NCBI GenBank assembly: GCA_013178415.1
Contig: JABLXA010000001.1
Location: 33,445-97,444 of the forward strand
Direction of reading: 5' to 3'
Source: Bacillota bacterium
GTDB taxonomy: Bacteria > Bacillota > SHA-98 > Ch115
DNA: 64,000 nt
The notes under the pieces were generated by a model. It was not told the origin of the DNA, ran no database searches, and saw only the letters and a list, made by a program, of their open reading frames with translations. Within the stretch, counting starts at the first letter, position 1; every line of letters begins with the position of its first letter. A program made the translations under genes and the position numbers. Positions 7,028 through 44,631 of the stretch are shown in pieces.

Positions 7028-7056
7028 TTGACAGGGCTCGCCTCTACTGGTATAAT
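7028..7056 (+). promoter_or_regulatory. Near-consensus sigma70 promoter (TTGACA - 17 nt - TATAAT) upstream of the Uma2 gene.
   Basis: TTGACA at 7028-7033, a 17-nt spacer, TATAAT at 7051-7056. Confidence 0.5.
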
Positions 7057-7068
7057 AAGGATGGCAGC

Positions 7069-7770
7069 ATGGCAATTCAATGTATATTGACGAGCGAGGT
7101 GGTCATGATGAAAGACCATTACATGGGGAAGTGCATGGGCACACAAGACAGCCGTGGAGCGCCGGATAACTTAGATGTGCCGGAAAACCCTGAGATGCTT
7201 GAAGAGACAGTCCCCCAATATACCTCTCTGGAATTACGCCTCACATATGAAGACTATTGCAAGATACCGTTCGGAGAAAGATATGAGCTCGTGGAAGGGG
7301 ACCTGAGGAAGATGACACCAGCTCCATCAGTGTTTCATCAGGAAATCTCCGGCAGGATCGAGATGGCGTTGAGGCAATGGGTCGGGGACCGTAAATTAGG
7401 TAAGGTATATTACTCCCCCATTGATGTGGTCTTGAGCAGGCATAATGTTGTCCAGCCTGATATATTGTTCATCTCGCGTGAAAGACTCGGGATAATCAAG
7501 GAGGCATGTATCCGAGGCGCCCCCGATCTGGTAATCGAGATCCTCTCGCCTTCCACGGAGGAATGGGACCGGATTATCAAGCGTCAAATCTATGGTCGTT
7601 ATGGTGTGCGTGAATACTGGATCGTAGATCCCGAGGGTCGCAGCATCGAGGTTACCGCGCATAACAGCAAAGAGCTCGCTACAGTGCAGATTTACTCCTC
7701 GGGGATGACATTGTCGAGCCCTCTGCTATGCGGTTTCGCGTTAGAGATAGATGATGTCTTCCGCCCATAG
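7069..7770 (+). CDS. Uma2-family (DUF820) putative restriction-like endonuclease, paralog 1. The true start is possibly the ATG at 7108, which follows an AGGTGG.
   Basis: Uma2 motifs YELVEGDL, PDLVIEILSPST, YGVREYWIVDP. About 80% identical to the ORF at 43990-44631. Confidence 0.8.
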   Translation: MAIQCILTSEVVMMKDHYMGKCMGTQDSRGAPDNLDVPENPEMLEETVPQYTSLELRLTYEDYCKIPFGERYELVEGDLRKMTPAPSVFHQEISGRIEMALRQWVGDRKLGKVYYSPIDVVLSRHNVVQPDILFISRERLGIIKEACIRGAPDLVIEILSPSTEEWDRIIKRQIYGRYGVREYWIVDPEGRSIEVTAHNSKELATVQIYSSGMTLSSPLLCGFALEIDDVFRP

Positions 7771-7853: not shown

Positions 7854-9056
7854 TTATTCTTTTCTGTAAACATATTGCTTAGGATGCTTAGAGCCCGTCG
7901 AAGTGAGGTGTCCCTGTTCTATAAGGTCTTTGATGTCATTGTAGGCGGTCGCCGCGCTTACCTGAAAATGCTCCTGGTAGCTACTGATGGTCCAAATACA
8001 TCCCTGCTGGGCAAGGAGAAGCGCCTCGCGGTGACGGCCCAGACGATCTTTGACATAGACAGGAGCGGCGGCATTCCCTTCTACAGGATCTTCAGCCACA
8101 ATGCTTGTTTGGGAAGTCGTCGGAACAATGCCGGACGGGGAGTAGGACGCGTGGGCCGTCTCCTCGGGGTCAGTCTGCCGCCAACTGTCGGGATCCAGAC
8201 CTTCCTGGGTTTCCTTTTGGGTTTCAATCTGCCCCCGCAAGACAACCGCTGCAGCCGACAACCAGCGATAGGCCATATCCTGGGCCATACCTCGGGTTTC
8301 AGCAAAAATCCACTGGACGTTTGGGTACTCTGCTTGCAACGCGGCCACCAGGTTCAGCAACCATCCCGTAGAGACGCCACCCTTCTTTTCAGCCTTTACA
8401 AGGTCGCTGAGTCGTCCCTCTATTACAAGGCATCCTCGAGGCAGGCTGCTCAACTCTACTAGCTGCATTCGCAGGGTGCCCGATGAGAGAGCGCCGGCCA
8501 AATCCGCTACTGTTTTGCGCTCTACTGCCGCTATGAGCCTGTTCCCGAAAAAGATACCATAGTCGCCTGTGGGGAGTTCCCTGCGCTCCGTATATGCATG
8601 CTGGTGCGGGAATTTCCATGGATAACGTTCTCTATGATCTATGGCAATCGAGACTGTGCGTCGCTCGAGGCCCCTGGCCGTCGGCACCCGGATGCCGGGT
8701 CTGGCTGCCTGCATGGTCTGTTGGGTCCGCCAAAAGATCAATGTGCGTCCCTTGCTTTCTGTCCAGATAAACATGGAGCGGCGTCGCTGGCGTCGTTTCA
8801 GCACCAAATGCACGGCTTTGCCGGCCCGCCGGCATGATTGAACGGGCACTGCCTCAAGGACTTCCAATTTCTCTGGCCAGCTCTCCAATTGATAGCAGAA
8901 GAGATCCCGGCCAGTAGGCCAGGTGTCCGATGTAGCTAAAACGAGCGGCGCTTCCCCGGCCACAGGTAAGCATGCCAGATATGGTAGTCTGGCGTTGGGC
9001 TTAGGATTGCGGGCAATGATGAACATGGGCGCATGGCACTCATTATCCGAGATCAA
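7854..9056 (-). CDS. ERCC4 (XPF/Mus81/Hef-type) nuclease-domain protein with a C-terminal winged-helix-like domain, 400 aa.
   Basis: IAIDHRE ... GDYGIFFGNRLIAAVERKTVADLAGALSSGTLRMQL...LVIEG matches the ERCC4 signature (D, E, GDY, ERKxxxDL, S, G-L). The C-terminus (VSAATAYNDIKDLIEQGHL) is HTH-like. The N-terminal ~140 aa are unrecognised. Confidence 0.55.
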   Translation of the reverse strand: MISDNECHAPMFIIARNPKPNARLPYLACLPVAGEAPLVLATSDTWPTGRDLFCYQLESWPEKLEVLEAVPVQSCRRAGKAVHLVLKRRQRRRSMFIWTESKGRTLIFWRTQQTMQAARPGIRVPTARGLERRTVSIAIDHRERYPWKFPHQHAYTERRELPTGDYGIFFGNRLIAAVERKTVADLAGALSSGTLRMQLVELSSLPRGCLVIEGRLSDLVKAEKKGGVSTGWLLNLVAALQAEYPNVQWIFAETRGMAQDMAYRWLSAAAVVLRGQIETQKETQEGLDPDSWRQTDPEETAHASYSPSGIVPTTSQTSIVAEDPVEGNAAAPVYVKDRLGRHREALLLAQQGCIWTISSYQEHFQVSAATAYNDIKDLIEQGHLTSTGSKHPKQYVYRKE

Positions 9057-9081
9057 AGGGCCTCACCACCTTCATTATCAG

Positions 9082-11016
9082 CTACGCTCGCTCGATCCAT
9101 ACGGTCATCGGCGCGACCTCCCTGTTTGCCCAGGCGAAGTAGGGTATCGCTTTAAGCGCGACTTTCTTGGTGTCACTCTCAACAACATCTTCAATGGGCA
9201 TGTATAGAGCGGCGGGTAATTCCAAGGGCACTTCTCCTGGGCATTTAATTGTGGCCACCCCGCCCAGGAGATCTTCTTCATATTGGACTTTGATATCGTC
9301 CGGATGATCTATAGTGACCCTGGCATCTAGCACCGGCACCTCTGGATTGTCGACCCCCTCAAAGCAATAGACAATGGGCCCCCGCAATAGCGCGACGCTA
9401 TTTCGATTTTCCACTACCCTGGGGTGGCTAACCATAAAAACAGGTTCCATTGTCATCTGCAATGAGATTCTATCTCCCTTATTCCAGCATCGCCTTAGCT
9501 CTAGGTAACCATTGGATTCAATAGCGCTGGCGTGACTACGAGACTCACCCGCGTTAGCTAACTTTCCGCCGACTATGTCTCCGTTGATCGCTATTGTATA
9601 TTTTTTACACCATCCGGGAACTCGCAGGAAAACCGAGAATTCTGCAGGATGCTCAGGCGAGACCTCGAGTTCAATCCCGCCATCCCATGGATACTTCGTG
9701 GATTGCATCAATGTAAATGGGGTCCCGTCTTCCAGGCACCAATCCAGCATAGCATTATCGTAGAGGTGCACCCAGACTCCTTCCTTGCTGGTGCTAAAGA
9801 GGTAGCCTGGGATAGAGGCGATTTGTCTAATTACGTTGGTTGGACAGCAGGTGCAATCAAACCACTCTTGCCTGCGGTATGGCCCAACCCGCGCCCATTC
9901 GTACCATGGGTCGCCTTCCCCTTTTCCATTGTATCGCAATGGGTTCACGTAGAAGAAAGAGTCTCCTTCCAGAGATACTCCCGCCAAGAAGCCGTTGTAT
10001 AGGGCGAGTTCCATGATATCTGCGAATCTCGCCTCACCCTTCAAAGAAAGCATCCGGTAATTCCACATGGAATTGGCGATTGCCGCACAGGTTTCGGCAT
10101 AAGCCCTTTCATTCGGCAGTTCATAGGGCCTGCCGACTGATTCGCCAACGTGCCTGCCACCAAGGCCGCCGGTTATATACATCCTGGTCTTCGTCATGCT
10201 GTTCCACAGCTTCTCGAGGACCGAGAGAGCGATGGGATTTCCCGTTTCGGCATAATAATCCGCTAGCCCTGACGCGAAATAGGCTGCGCGGACTGCGTGG
10301 CCTTGGAACTCCTCCATATCCTGGTAGCCCTGTTGTTCCAGGAAGAACTCCGAAAGCCTCAAATATCGCTCCTTTCCGGTTTCCCGGTAGAGCTCCACCA
10401 GTGCCATTTCAACCTCCGGGTGTCCATCAAAGCCTTTTCGCTTGTCTGGTCCGAATACATTGCACAAGTAGTCGGCGAATCTAGTTGATACATCCAGGAG
10501 TCTAGTGTCCCCGATGCCTCTGTAGAGGGCTAAGGCCGCCTGGAAAAGATGACCTGCGCAATAGAGCTCATGCGATCCCTTCTCGAGGTTCTGAAACCGT
10601 TCGCCTTTCCTTTCATCCACATGCCATGTATTCAAATAACCATCCTCACCCTGGGCGCCCGCAATAGCTTCGATGACCCGGTTGAGGGCGCTCTGTAGCT
10701 CGCGGTCCATTTCGGATTGAAGGGCAAAGGCGGCTGCTTCGACCCATTTATAGAGGTCGGAATCAGTAAACAGTGGACCCCTTCGCGGGACATTTTTCTT
10801 ACCTGCAAGGCGGAGAAAATTATCGACGACGCCATGCTCTTCCAAACGCTGCAGAACCGCGGGTATAGCCACCTTCTGGTTCTTCAGCATCCTCTTTTTC
10901 CAGAATCCGTCTTGCATCTTCACGGCAGCAACCGGAACAGAGTGTAATCTGGCAAACGGACTGTCATGATTGGCTAAGATTCCTGTCTTCTTGCGCTCCT
11001 TGTAGACATCAAACAT
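9082..11016 (-). CDS. Glycoside hydrolase family 127 (DUF1680) beta-L-arabinofuranosidase-like protein.
   Basis: 644 aa, no signal peptide. GH127-like Cys cluster (EWFDCTCCPTNV...) and the overall DUF1680 pattern. Confidence 0.75.
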   Translation of the reverse strand: MFDVYKERKKTGILANHDSPFARLHSVPVAAVKMQDGFWKKRMLKNQKVAIPAVLQRLEEHGVVDNFLRLAGKKNVPRRGPLFTDSDLYKWVEAAAFALQSEMDRELQSALNRVIEAIAGAQGEDGYLNTWHVDERKGERFQNLEKGSHELYCAGHLFQAALALYRGIGDTRLLDVSTRFADYLCNVFGPDKRKGFDGHPEVEMALVELYRETGKERYLRLSEFFLEQQGYQDMEEFQGHAVRAAYFASGLADYYAETGNPIALSVLEKLWNSMTKTRMYITGGLGGRHVGESVGRPYELPNERAYAETCAAIANSMWNYRMLSLKGEARFADIMELALYNGFLAGVSLEGDSFFYVNPLRYNGKGEGDPWYEWARVGPYRRQEWFDCTCCPTNVIRQIASIPGYLFSTSKEGVWVHLYDNAMLDWCLEDGTPFTLMQSTKYPWDGGIELEVSPEHPAEFSVFLRVPGWCKKYTIAINGDIVGGKLANAGESRSHASAIESNGYLELRRCWNKGDRISLQMTMEPVFMVSHPRVVENRNSVALLRGPIVYCFEGVDNPEVPVLDARVTIDHPDDIKVQYEEDLLGGVATIKCPGEVPLELPAALYMPIEDVVESDTKKVALKAIPYFAWANREVAPMTVWIERA

Positions 11017-11563: not shown

Positions 11564-12658
11564 TCATCCCCCTGATACCATTTTCAGATCCAGTTGCCTT
11601 ACCGCGGGCGGCGCCACAACGGTCCGCCTTCCAGAATCATTCTGGCCTTTTGCGGCCGGCTCTGCCACCATTGTGCACCATTCAAGCACTGTCTCCGTTA
11701 GAGGTATGGCATCTATCCCGGTGCCTTCTATGAGGGCGCTCTTCGGCGTCGGTAAGGCCCTAACCCTGATAGCATTCTGCACTGAGAAATTCCATCCCAG
11801 TTTCTTGAAACTATTTAGAGCTTTGCTCCGGGTCCCAAAATCGGAAAGGCCATTCTTGTAGAGAAATTCTATAGTTGCAAGGTCATCCTCCTGGTCAAAC
11901 AGGGATATCGCCATAAGTCTGCCGGAGATGACCCGGGCAAGCTCCTGCAAGGCAGCGATTCCATCGCGGATATTCTGCAATCCGACATTGGTCGTTACTA
12001 TTGGTAGCGAATTCCCTTTGAAAGGCATCTTTCTTGCGTCAAAAGCAATGAAATTGGCATGATCATCCAGGCCGAGCCATTTGAAACGACGCTGGTCTCG
12101 ACGCAGTACCTGCGGGCTGAAGTCCGTCACGACGACATCCCGTCCGGCCAGCTCCTGCAACATTGCCTGGGCGAGAGCGCCCCTGCCTGATGCCAGGTCC
12201 AGGATGATACCATCAAGCCGGGATACCCTATCCAGAACAAATTGGAATTCTAATTCGCGGCCTTCCCGATATTCCGCGGTGTATATCTCCAGGTCAGCCA
12301 CGCAATAGGCTTCCTCTGCCTCGTGGAATTTGCCTCTTTCTTCGAGAATCATGGCTCTAAAGAATTTATCTGCAGGAGCGAGAGATTCAAGTGGAGAATC
12401 CAATAATCTCTCCTCGACTTCGGGATGGTCTGCCAAATAACGCGATATGTAGCTCCCCTGTGATTCCCAGAGGTCTTCTCTCGGAAGGTCCGGCGTGAGA
12501 AATACGGCTATGCCATCTCTCACCGGATATGTGGCTCCGCAACTATCGCAGCACGCCAGGCCTTCAAGAATTCTGTAGCTATCTCTCATGATAATAGTCC
12601 ACGACAGGTCCCCCCGGCAAGAGGGACATTGGAGCAATTCAAGCAGGAATTCGTGCAC
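11564..12658 (-). CDS. Class I SAM-dependent methyltransferase with an N-terminal Trm112-like zinc ribbon.
   Basis: CPSC...CDSCGATYPVRDGIAVF zinc ribbon, and MTase motif I ILDLASGRGALA...VVVTDFS. Confidence 0.7.
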   Translation of the reverse strand: MHEFLLELLQCPSCRGDLSWTIIMRDSYRILEGLACCDSCGATYPVRDGIAVFLTPDLPREDLWESQGSYISRYLADHPEVEERLLDSPLESLAPADKFFRAMILEERGKFHEAEEAYCVADLEIYTAEYREGRELEFQFVLDRVSRLDGIILDLASGRGALAQAMLQELAGRDVVVTDFSPQVLRRDQRRFKWLGLDDHANFIAFDARKMPFKGNSLPIVTTNVGLQNIRDGIAALQELARVISGRLMAISLFDQEDDLATIEFLYKNGLSDFGTRSKALNSFKKLGWNFSVQNAIRVRALPTPKSALIEGTGIDAIPLTETVLEWCTMVAEPAAKGQNDSGRRTVVAPPAVRQLDLKMVSGG

Positions 12659-43989: not shown

Positions 43990-44631
43990 TCAACGGAAGA
44001 CCTCATCTATCTCCAATCTAAAGCCATCCAACAGGGGGCTTTCCAGTGTCGTGCCAGGCGGATAAACCTGGACAGTGGCGAGCTCCCTGCCGTTATGAGC
44101 GGCAACCTCGATGCTGTGACCGTCGGGATCCACTATCCAGAATTCGCGAACTCCATAGCGGCCGTAAATCCGGCGTTTGGTCACCCTATCCAACTCCGCG
44201 GTAGAAGGTGAGAGGATCTCGACCACTAGGTCCGGCGCGCCTTGAATATAGGCCTCTTTGATTATCCCAAGGCGTTCCAGTGAGACATACAGGATATCAG
44301 GCTGGACCACGTTATGTTCACTTAATACCACATCAATGGGAGCATCATACACTTCTCCAAGGTCACGATTCTCAACCCAGTGCCGCAGTGCCTTTTCAAT
44401 CCTCCCGGAGACTTTTTGGTGAAAAACAGATGGAGCCGGTGTCATCTTCCTCAGGTCCCCCTCCACGAGCTCATATCTTTCCCCGGACGGCATCCGGCAA
44501 TAATCTGCGTATGTAAGACGAAGATCAGCCGTATAATATTGAACTGCCGTTTCCTTCACCATATCCGGAGGCTTTGGCACACTGGGGCCCTTCATCGGAT
44601 CCTGGTCTTTCACAGTAATCACCTCGATCAT
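43990..44631 (-). CDS. Uma2-family (DUF820) putative endonuclease, paralog 2.
   Basis: About 80% identical to paralog 1, with the same motifs (YELVEGDLRKMTPAPSVFHQ, PDLVVEILSPST, YGVREFWIVDP). Confidence 0.8.
   Translation of the reverse strand: MIEVITVKDQDPMKGPSVPKPPDMVKETAVQYYTADLRLTYADYCRMPSGERYELVEGDLRKMTPAPSVFHQKVSGRIEKALRHWVENRDLGEVYDAPIDVVLSEHNVVQPDILYVSLERLGIIKEAYIQGAPDLVVEILSPSTAELDRVTKRRIYGRYGVREFWIVDPDGHSIEVAAHNGRELATVQVYPPGTTLESPLLDGFRLEIDEVFR

Follow-up and report, generated by a model that had tools for sequence, protein, structure and literature searches.

What does an ERCC4 nuclease do in a bacterium? ERCC4 nucleases of the XPF/Mus81/Hef type are central to eukaryotic and archaeal DNA repair, and a gene for such a protein lies within a 64,000-nucleotide stretch of a Bacillota genome (contig JABLXA010000001.1, positions 33,445 to 97,444; hereafter the window), where it encodes 400 amino acids. 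We find that this protein belongs to a bacterial family that is real and well-defined and whose domain composition is unexpected. A predicted β-barrel resembling the 3'-phosphoesterase (PE) of LigD precedes an ERCC4 core with an intact active site, and an exchangeable DNA-binding tail follows. The biological role that we infer, with moderate confidence, is that of a metal-dependent, structure-specific ERCC4-type endonuclease that processes branched or flapped DNA in the repair, recombination or replication of the resident replicon (the chromosome, or a plasmid in Actinomycetota), and not that of a defense-island effector.

The nuclease core is recognizable by several routes. Pfam places ERCC4 (PF02732) at residues 139-256 with E = 2.1e-10 and 41.1 bits against a cutoff of 24; actinobacterial members of the family reach 56-65 bits, and the sole NCBIfam match is local and covers the nuclease portion of Hef. 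Comparison of the family profile with the Hef nuclease gives E = 6.7e-7, and with A. pernix XPF 1.7e-4, the VDxRE, GDY, ERKxxxD and VEG motifs aligning residue by residue with both. In an alignment of 79 sequences from all phyla that carry the family, D140, E143, G164, D165, Y166, E179, R180, K181 and E213 are at least 97% conserved; in a separate alignment of the family, D185 is at least 90% conserved. Profile, motif and restriction-endonuclease-like fold all place the protein in the ERCC4 superfamily. With catalytic residues conserved to this degree and aligned with those of Hef and XPF, the nuclease is probably, if not almost certainly, active. An earlier note, made from the sequence of the window, had read the protein as a probably active ERCC4 nuclease, and the Pfam match and the alignment bear this out; the motif quoted there is present, with GDY and VERK 11 residues apart instead of nine. 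The same residues speak to the idea that the protein is primarily a winged-helix transcription factor, or a scaffold with a non-catalytic nuclease fold like ERCC1, EME1 and FAAP24. The catalytic residues that inactive paralogs have lost are all kept here, and the helix-turn-helix (HTH) tail is dispensable or replaceable within the family, which makes this idea extremely improbable.

Around the core, the architecture differs from that of canonical XPF, Hef and Mus81. No helix-hairpin-helix (HhH) match indicative of their tandem (HhH)2 domain was found in Pfam, the C-terminus being a winged helix in the window protein, and Lsr2 or absent in relatives. An N-terminal superfamily 2 (SF2) helicase or helicase-like domain is not present either; in the AlphaFold model, which has a pLDDT (predicted local distance difference test) of 84.6 over the whole protein, the N-terminus is a 110-amino-acid β-barrel.

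This barrel occupies most of the ~140-amino-acid N-terminal region that the earlier note had set apart as uncharacterized. The region is not featureless, since its predicted structure has the eight-stranded β-barrel plus 3-10 helix fold of PE. In PE, this distinctive fold carries two His and one Asp that bind Mn and an Arg and a His that bind phosphate, all of them essential (PMC3082917), and the enzyme binds the 3' termini of primer-template DNA (PMC3300020). Across the 79 family sequences, no invariant His, Asp or Glu was found anywhere in the N-domain. What is invariant in the N-domain and the connector behind it is W46, W60, W109, R88, R93, R104, R119, R128 and several Pro, with C54 nearly so. 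In the best register obtained with hhalign (RLPYLLRLPV against RLHYDFRLE), Pro25 and Leu27 stand at the places of the PE Mn ligands His48 and Asp50, and the position of PE Arg52 is an Arg in 65% of the sequences and a Cys in the window protein. The N-domain gave no Pfam match, LigD_N included, at E <= 1; a search of PDB sequences with its profile found nothing; and hhalign against the sequences of four solved PE structures returned a non-significant E = 0.26. As both the PE active site and sequence similarity to PE are lacking, we conclude that the N-domain, predicted to share the PE fold, is not a phosphoesterase, and we call it PE-like and place it outside the PE enzyme family. We know of no earlier example of the LigD phosphoesterase fold being reused as a non-catalytic domain. 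The Arg/Trp-rich conservation of the N-domain suggests nucleic-acid binding.

It could still be argued that the protein is a bifunctional end-processing enzyme, in which the N-domain remains a 3'-phosphoesterase through other catalytic residues. The predicted fold would fit this, and a fusion of end healing with flap cutting is biochemically sensible; given a barrel with no invariant acidic residue or His, Pro and Leu at two ligand positions, and a PE mechanism in which each of the five residues is needed, we consider it very unlikely.

The N-domain is also confined to this family. An exhaustive HMMER search with its profile against 1.84 billion representatives returned 710 proteins (391 at E <= 1e-10), too few for the large LigD PE family to be included. 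Among the matches listed, all those checked with local hidden Markov models belong to the ERCC4-fused family, and ERCC4 is present in 43 of the 51 listed with at least 140 residues past the N-domain. The other eight were considered as possible alternative architectures and rejected: most are out-of-frame low-complexity (frameshifted) genes, transposase-interrupted genes or fragments, and one is an N-terminally truncated protein with an Lsr2 tail. The PE-like domain occurs only fused to ERCC4. Between the two lies a connector, RPGIRVPxARGL, that is nearly invariant across phyla though its model has low confidence; this segment may contact DNA or a partner and become ordered only in a complex.

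The family alignment falls into three blocks, namely an extremely conserved N-terminal block (residues ~10-132), the ERCC4 core, and a C-terminal HTH beyond a linker of variable length. The tail is a winged helix in Bacillota, Chloroflexota and Trueperaceae. For the window protein, matches to HTH_11 and HTH_DeoR at residues 347-385 are under threshold (15.6 bits against a cutoff of 21 for the DeoR type); homologs score ~26 bits against the DeoR-type HTH, and the modeled fold is clearly the winged helix that the earlier note had anticipated. In Actinomycetota, the Lsr2 DNA-binding domain (PF23359, E 1e-9 to 1e-14) replaces the winged helix in 8 of 10 proteins examined, and the remaining two, Knoellia among them, have no tail. 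This Lsr2 domain is the AT-rich-DNA-binding module of a xenogeneic silencer. What stays constant in the family is the PE-like barrel plus ERCC4; the C-terminal module, a flexibly tethered binder of duplex DNA, can be exchanged or dispensed with. Judged by where it sits and by its presumed role, this module would correspond to (HhH)2 in XPF, Hef and Mus81. No PCNA/clamp-binding motif was noticed by eye at the C-terminus, for which no systematic search was made. Several members (L096 6995-8017; L099 6989-7972; H15-H17 from PLSDB) bear the RefSeq label 'histone-like nucleoid-structuring protein Lsr2', which derives from a 35-amino-acid C-terminal domain and is misleading.

A 2012 census of the PD-(D/E)XK superfamily lists ERCC4 as "Archaea & Eukaryota" (PMC3424549), and our literature search found no paper on bacterial ERCC4 proteins, PE-ERCC4 fusions or ERCC4-Lsr2 fusions. 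A search of 5.8 billion proteins recovered a 99%-identical protein in a Firmicutes metagenome-assembled genome (MAG) and more than 200 relatives, most of them ~360 amino acids long and 43-50% identical over 96% of the query. These come from Bacillota, Chloroflexota, Dormibacterota and Trueperaceae and are named only "hypothetical" or "ERCC4 domain-containing protein". With one genome per species, the carriers number 456 of 185,579 species (0.25%), in keeping with the rarity claimed in the earlier note. Among them are many Actinomycetota, cultured Knoellia and Janibacter, and a MAG that is assigned to Symbiobacterium thermophilum. The neighbor-joining tree of the 79 sequences resolves clades of Actinomycetota, of Trueperaceae and of Chloroflexota plus Dormibacterota, with a few Anaerolineales and one "Betaproteobacteria" MAG nested in Bacillota. 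As the tree largely follows phyla, inheritance is mostly vertical, with occasional transfer or mis-binning. The "Betaproteobacteria" protein (L014, JBLNCC010000029.1) is 60% identical to the window protein and groups with L012 and L013 inside Bacillota; mis-binning of its contig, or else a recent transfer of the gene, is the probable explanation. A phage origin was considered and rejected: BFVD and INPHARED hold only ERCC4-core proteins of archaeal and eukaryotic viruses, and IMG/VR holds no relatives of the bacterial family.

The earlier note had described an accessory patch and a possible DNA-targeting defense effector, and it named the adjoining Uma2 and GH127 genes correctly. None of the window's neighbors recurs next to any homolog, apart from one distant GH127, so the patch is not a shared one and the Uma2 adjacency is coincidental. 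In the six loci with called genes, neighbors differ by lineage. Among 149 immediate neighbors at 59 non-redundant loci, 157 Pfam families are represented by at most four members each (PIN 4, MNT/Polbeta 3, sigma-70 3), most of the genes being metabolic or transport genes. No defense-island enrichment was detected among these neighbors, the PADLOC matches being scattered at no more than two per model. The only PADLOC-DB 2.0 match of the protein itself is a weak one to SoFic on the HTH (E 0.0021). Clustering of all open reading frames (ORFs) within ±5 kb at 91 loci yielded no conserved partner gene, the largest cluster (9/91) consisting of generic ABC-ATPase and extracytoplasmic function (ECF)-sigma paralogs. 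Synteny is kept within lineages, as in five Trueperaceae loci with the same upstream genes. What might be expected of a housekeeping gene is thus half realized: lineage-level synteny and a tree ordered by phyla are present, but there is no universal context, and actinobacterial copies occur on plasmids.

Several of these loci deserve mention in their own right. Toxin-antitoxin pairs often adjoin the gene, among them HEPN/MNT (L001, L002), PIN (L003, L008) and DUF4160/DUF2442 (L003). The HEPN plus MNT pair lies immediately beside the ERCC4 gene in two unrelated genomes, of Chloroflexota and Bacillota (L001 9059-9788; L002 9347-10209). Within 1-4 kb of the ERCC4 gene, Limnocylindria-type Chloroflexota carry an AlkZ-like gene and a pair of Ogt and ECF-sigma genes (L001 4052-6451; L003 5857-7065; L008 2379-3469). 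The AlkZ-like family includes interstrand-crosslink glycosylases, and these surroundings could be a lineage-specific DNA-damage neighborhood or simply shared synteny. In Knoellia subterranea, the tail-less ERCC4 gene is preceded, at a distance of 22 nt and on the same strand, by a gene (L081 7067-7960) whose 297-amino-acid product has a Cas4/RecB-like Cys cluster (CxxC...C) at its C-terminus. As this gene adjoins no other member, it was rejected as a partner of the family.

The protein might be a single-protein defense or plasmid-competition nuclease, with the dead PE-like domain as its sensor for an invader's free 3' ends or replication intermediates, the tail recruiting it to foreign (e.g. 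AT-rich) DNA, and ERCC4 destroying that DNA. Such a role would suit the patchy distribution, the toxin-antitoxin genes close by in several loci, the Uma2 gene (PADLOC PDC-S03) in the window, the occurrence on 23 actinobacterial plasmids amid many mobile-element genes, the nature of the Lsr2 domain as the AT-rich-DNA binder of a xenogeneic silencer, and the known defense theme, as in Shedu, of a constant nuclease core with variable sensor or DNA-binding domains. Yet Uma2 adjoins the gene only in this window, the lone PADLOC match is weak and the neighbor survey gave no defense signature; the tree largely follows phyla, with a sequence conservation unusual for a defense gene; and the variable part binds duplex generically, sits on a floppy linker and can be wholly missing. 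The defense idea is weakened, and we hold it to be rather unlikely. Its fullest form, a self-contained xenogeneic-DNA nuclease of Terrabacteria chromosomes and plasmids in which a catalysis-dead PE acts as sensor of 3' ends or replication intermediates, the tail as targeting module and the XPF-type site as the means of destroying the invader, is on our estimate unlikely; if true, it would be a previously undescribed single-gene immunity or plasmid-exclusion system.

The plasmid copies call for separate consideration. In PLSDB, a tblastn search located the gene on 23 plasmids, every one of them from an actinobacterial host (14 Mycobacterium, six Rhodococcus, and a single plasmid each from Pseudonocardia, Streptomyces and Mycolicibacterium). 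Among the Mycobacterium plasmids are 21-kb plasmids (M. intracellulare, M. lentiflavum) and pMUM-type plasmids (M. ulcerans, M. liflandii, M. pseudoshottsii). Eight plasmid proteins were translated, and all eight have the PE-like, ERCC4 and Lsr2 domains with intact catalytic motifs. On the 21-kb Mycobacterium plasmid, a serine recombinase lies three genes from the ERCC4 gene; two small 'hypothetical' genes between them (L092 2312-2873) resemble halves of one split gene. On pMUM002, the ERCC4 gene is located between a tyrosine recombinase and the insertion sequence (IS) IS21, and on the Pseudonocardia plasmid it is directly 5' of a recombinase and adjoins a Tn3-type transposase. Plasmid pDK3 of Rhodococcus sp. 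DK176 (L099 1662-7972) has a module of Tn7-like TnsA, Mu-type TnsB, ATPase TnsC and TniQ directly beside the ERCC4-Lsr2 gene, with TnsA as the nearest member, in divergent orientation; the ERCC4-Lsr2 gene could be cargo or a gene at the transposon end. HipA and RelE/HigA toxin-antitoxin modules are near the gene on the R. pyridinivorans plasmid. No neighbor is constant across the plasmid copies, and small upstream ORFs on three plasmids, considered as a shared partner, were rejected as not homologous to each other.

These surroundings would be expected if the protein were an accessory nuclease of mobile elements or plasmids that processes branched intermediates of site-specific recombination, transposition, conjugation or plasmid replication, with the chromosomal copies being domesticated or belonging to integrated elements. 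Retention of the gene on a plasmid of only 21 kb fits as well. Recombinases and transposases do not recur beside the 59 non-redundant chromosomal and MAG loci, however, and no integrase or transposase was found among the genes flanking the window copy (5.2-12.7 kb); on the plasmids the neighbors change from one to the next, and actinobacterial plasmids are full of IS elements anyway. We judge this explanation quite unlikely as an account of the family. For the actinobacterial branch at least, the plasmid context nonetheless leaves room for a part in conflict or in mobile elements.

We favor maintenance of the resident replicon because of the cross-phylum conservation, the mostly vertical descent, the lineage-level synteny and the absent defense signature. 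To our knowledge, all characterized ERCC4 nucleases dimerize. By analogy, the protein probably dimerizes too, with the nuclease core and the long conserved helix at residues 255-286 as the likely interface. The dead PE-like barrel, as a substitute for the helicase-like domain found in Hef and XPF, would hold a single-stranded 3' tail or a single-strand/double-strand junction; the flanking duplex would be held by the tethered winged helix or Lsr2, which would substitute for (HhH)2; and the ERCC4 site would cut at the base of a 3' flap, splayed arm or fork.

Several observations weigh against replicon maintenance. The distribution is patchy, toxin-antitoxin genes recur near chromosomal copies, and the actinobacterial plasmid copies lie beside recombinases, IS elements, a Tn7-like module and toxin-antitoxin genes, features that would also fit a role in conflict or in mobile elements. 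The upstream regions of 90 loci yielded neither a LexA nor a RecA-NDp motif, and a search of 99 loci and the window, which did not extend to Ku, yielded no LigD-type PE gene; the gene is therefore not linked to any known repair regulon or to nonhomologous end joining. The relationship of the N-domain to PE is drawn from predicted structure only, the profile-profile comparison falling short of significance, and we infer the substrate, polarity and oligomeric state of the protein alike.

The coordinates of the gene, its domains and its nearest neighbors in the window are collected in Table 1. The gene coincides exactly with an entry of the ORF list, with a TTG start and its stop codon at 7854-7856. 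It begins 25 nt past the stop codon of the upstream GH127 gene (stop at 9082), and a scan of this gap found no promoter-like site; given both, the two genes are probably co-transcribed. The GC content of the gene (0.559 against 0.520 ± 0.025 for the window) gave no significant signal of foreign DNA. Farther neighbors, by Pfam, are GlnRS, an EamA transporter and a methyltransferase.

Table 1. Position of the ERCC4 gene, its parts and its neighbors within the 64-kb window
Feature	Coordinates	Strand	Basis and remarks
Whole gene; 400-amino-acid protein: PE-like barrel, ERCC4 nuclease, linker, winged helix	7854..9056	-	ORF list, homologs, AlphaFold model
Shine-Dalgarno-like GGTGGTGAGG	9061..9070	-	4 nt 5' of TTG start; sequence
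Eight-stranded β-barrel and short helix, LigD 3'-phosphoesterase-like predicted fold without Mn site, residues 10-118	8703..9029	-	
Connector RPGIRVPxARGL, residues 119-132	8661..8702	-	R119, P120, P125, R128 at least 97% conserved (alignment); pLDDT 49-71
ERCC4 nuclease core, residues 133-256	8289..8660	-	D140, E143, G164-D165-Y166, E179-R180-K181, D185, E213-G214
Long α-helix after nuclease core, residues 255-286; candidate dimerization element	8199..8294	-	Model secondary structure; conserved R264 L266 A268
Variable disordered linker, residues 287-332	8061..8198	-	pLDDT <50 for residues 298-327; alignment gaps, length varies widely among homologs
DeoR-like winged HTH, residues 333-400	7857..8060	-	Lsr2 DNA-binding domain instead, or nothing, in Actinomycetota
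Uma2 gene	7069..7770	+	Neighbor; match to PADLOC candidate system PDC-S03, 1e-39
GH127 gene	9082..11016	-	Neighbor

Four further features of the window were noted in passing. A perfect extended sigma-70 promoter (TTGACA, 17-nt spacer, TG, TATAAT; 12/12 matches) is located at 7028-7056 (+), directly 5' of Uma2, and a second Uma2-family gene at 43993..44625 (-) is 68% identical to the first. The GH127 protein scores 481 bits against the NCBIfam model 'aceric acid hydrolase', far under its cutoff of 950, and is on this basis a relative of, yet distinct from, that enzyme. The gene at 11564-12658 (-) encodes a class I S-adenosylmethionine methyltransferase with a fused N-terminal Trm112p-like zinc ribbon (Pfam Trm112p at 5e-8, plus Methyltransf_25).

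With this work, a coherent bacterial ERCC4 family with an intact active site is defined in Bacillota, Chloroflexota, Dormibacterota, Deinococcota and Actinomycetota. Cultured strains of Knoellia, Janibacter and Rhodococcus carry it, as do plasmids of pathogenic Mycobacterium species. The family illustrates that the same nuclease core can carry quite different accessory modules, and it offers a natural swap of winged helix and Lsr2. If the protein is a 3'-flap or fork nuclease, an XPF-type activity would be added to bacterial and plasmid DNA metabolism, outside current textbook pathways; should it prove to be a conflict gene, it would represent a single-gene system of a new kind.

Among known proteins, viral ERCC4-only nucleases (African swine fever virus EP364R and those of haloarchaeal tailed viruses) share the ERCC4 core with the bacterial family (Foldseek E 7.6e-7 to 2e-5; tblastn 7e-4, the haloarchaeal virus match being weak). 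Unlike the bacterial proteins, they are the core alone, ~160 amino acids, without a PE-like or winged-helix domain. Shedu SduA and winged-helix-fused type IV restriction nucleases resemble the family, by analogy only, in combining a PD-(D/E)XK-superfamily core with DNA-binding or sensing domains in one polypeptide; the bacterial ERCC4 proteins differ from them in belonging to another nuclease family, in the dispensability of their variable domain, and in having neither a comparable PADLOC match nor a defense-island context. Compared with LigD PE and the stand-alone archaeal PEs (PDB 3n9b, 3p4h, 3p43; Pfam LigD_N), the N-domain is without Pfam or profile similarity, the His/His/Asp Mn site and the phosphate-binding His, and unlike LigD PE it is never joined to ligase or polymerase domains but always to ERCC4. 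Archaeal Hef/XPF (PDB 1j22, 2bgw), eukaryotic XPF and MUS81 (PF02732) are the relatives with which the nuclease core aligns. In contrast to these, the bacterial family dispenses with (HhH)2 and with the SF2 helicase or helicase-like domain, has an N-terminal PE-like barrel and a C-terminal winged helix or Lsr2 on a flexible linker, and is partly plasmid-borne.

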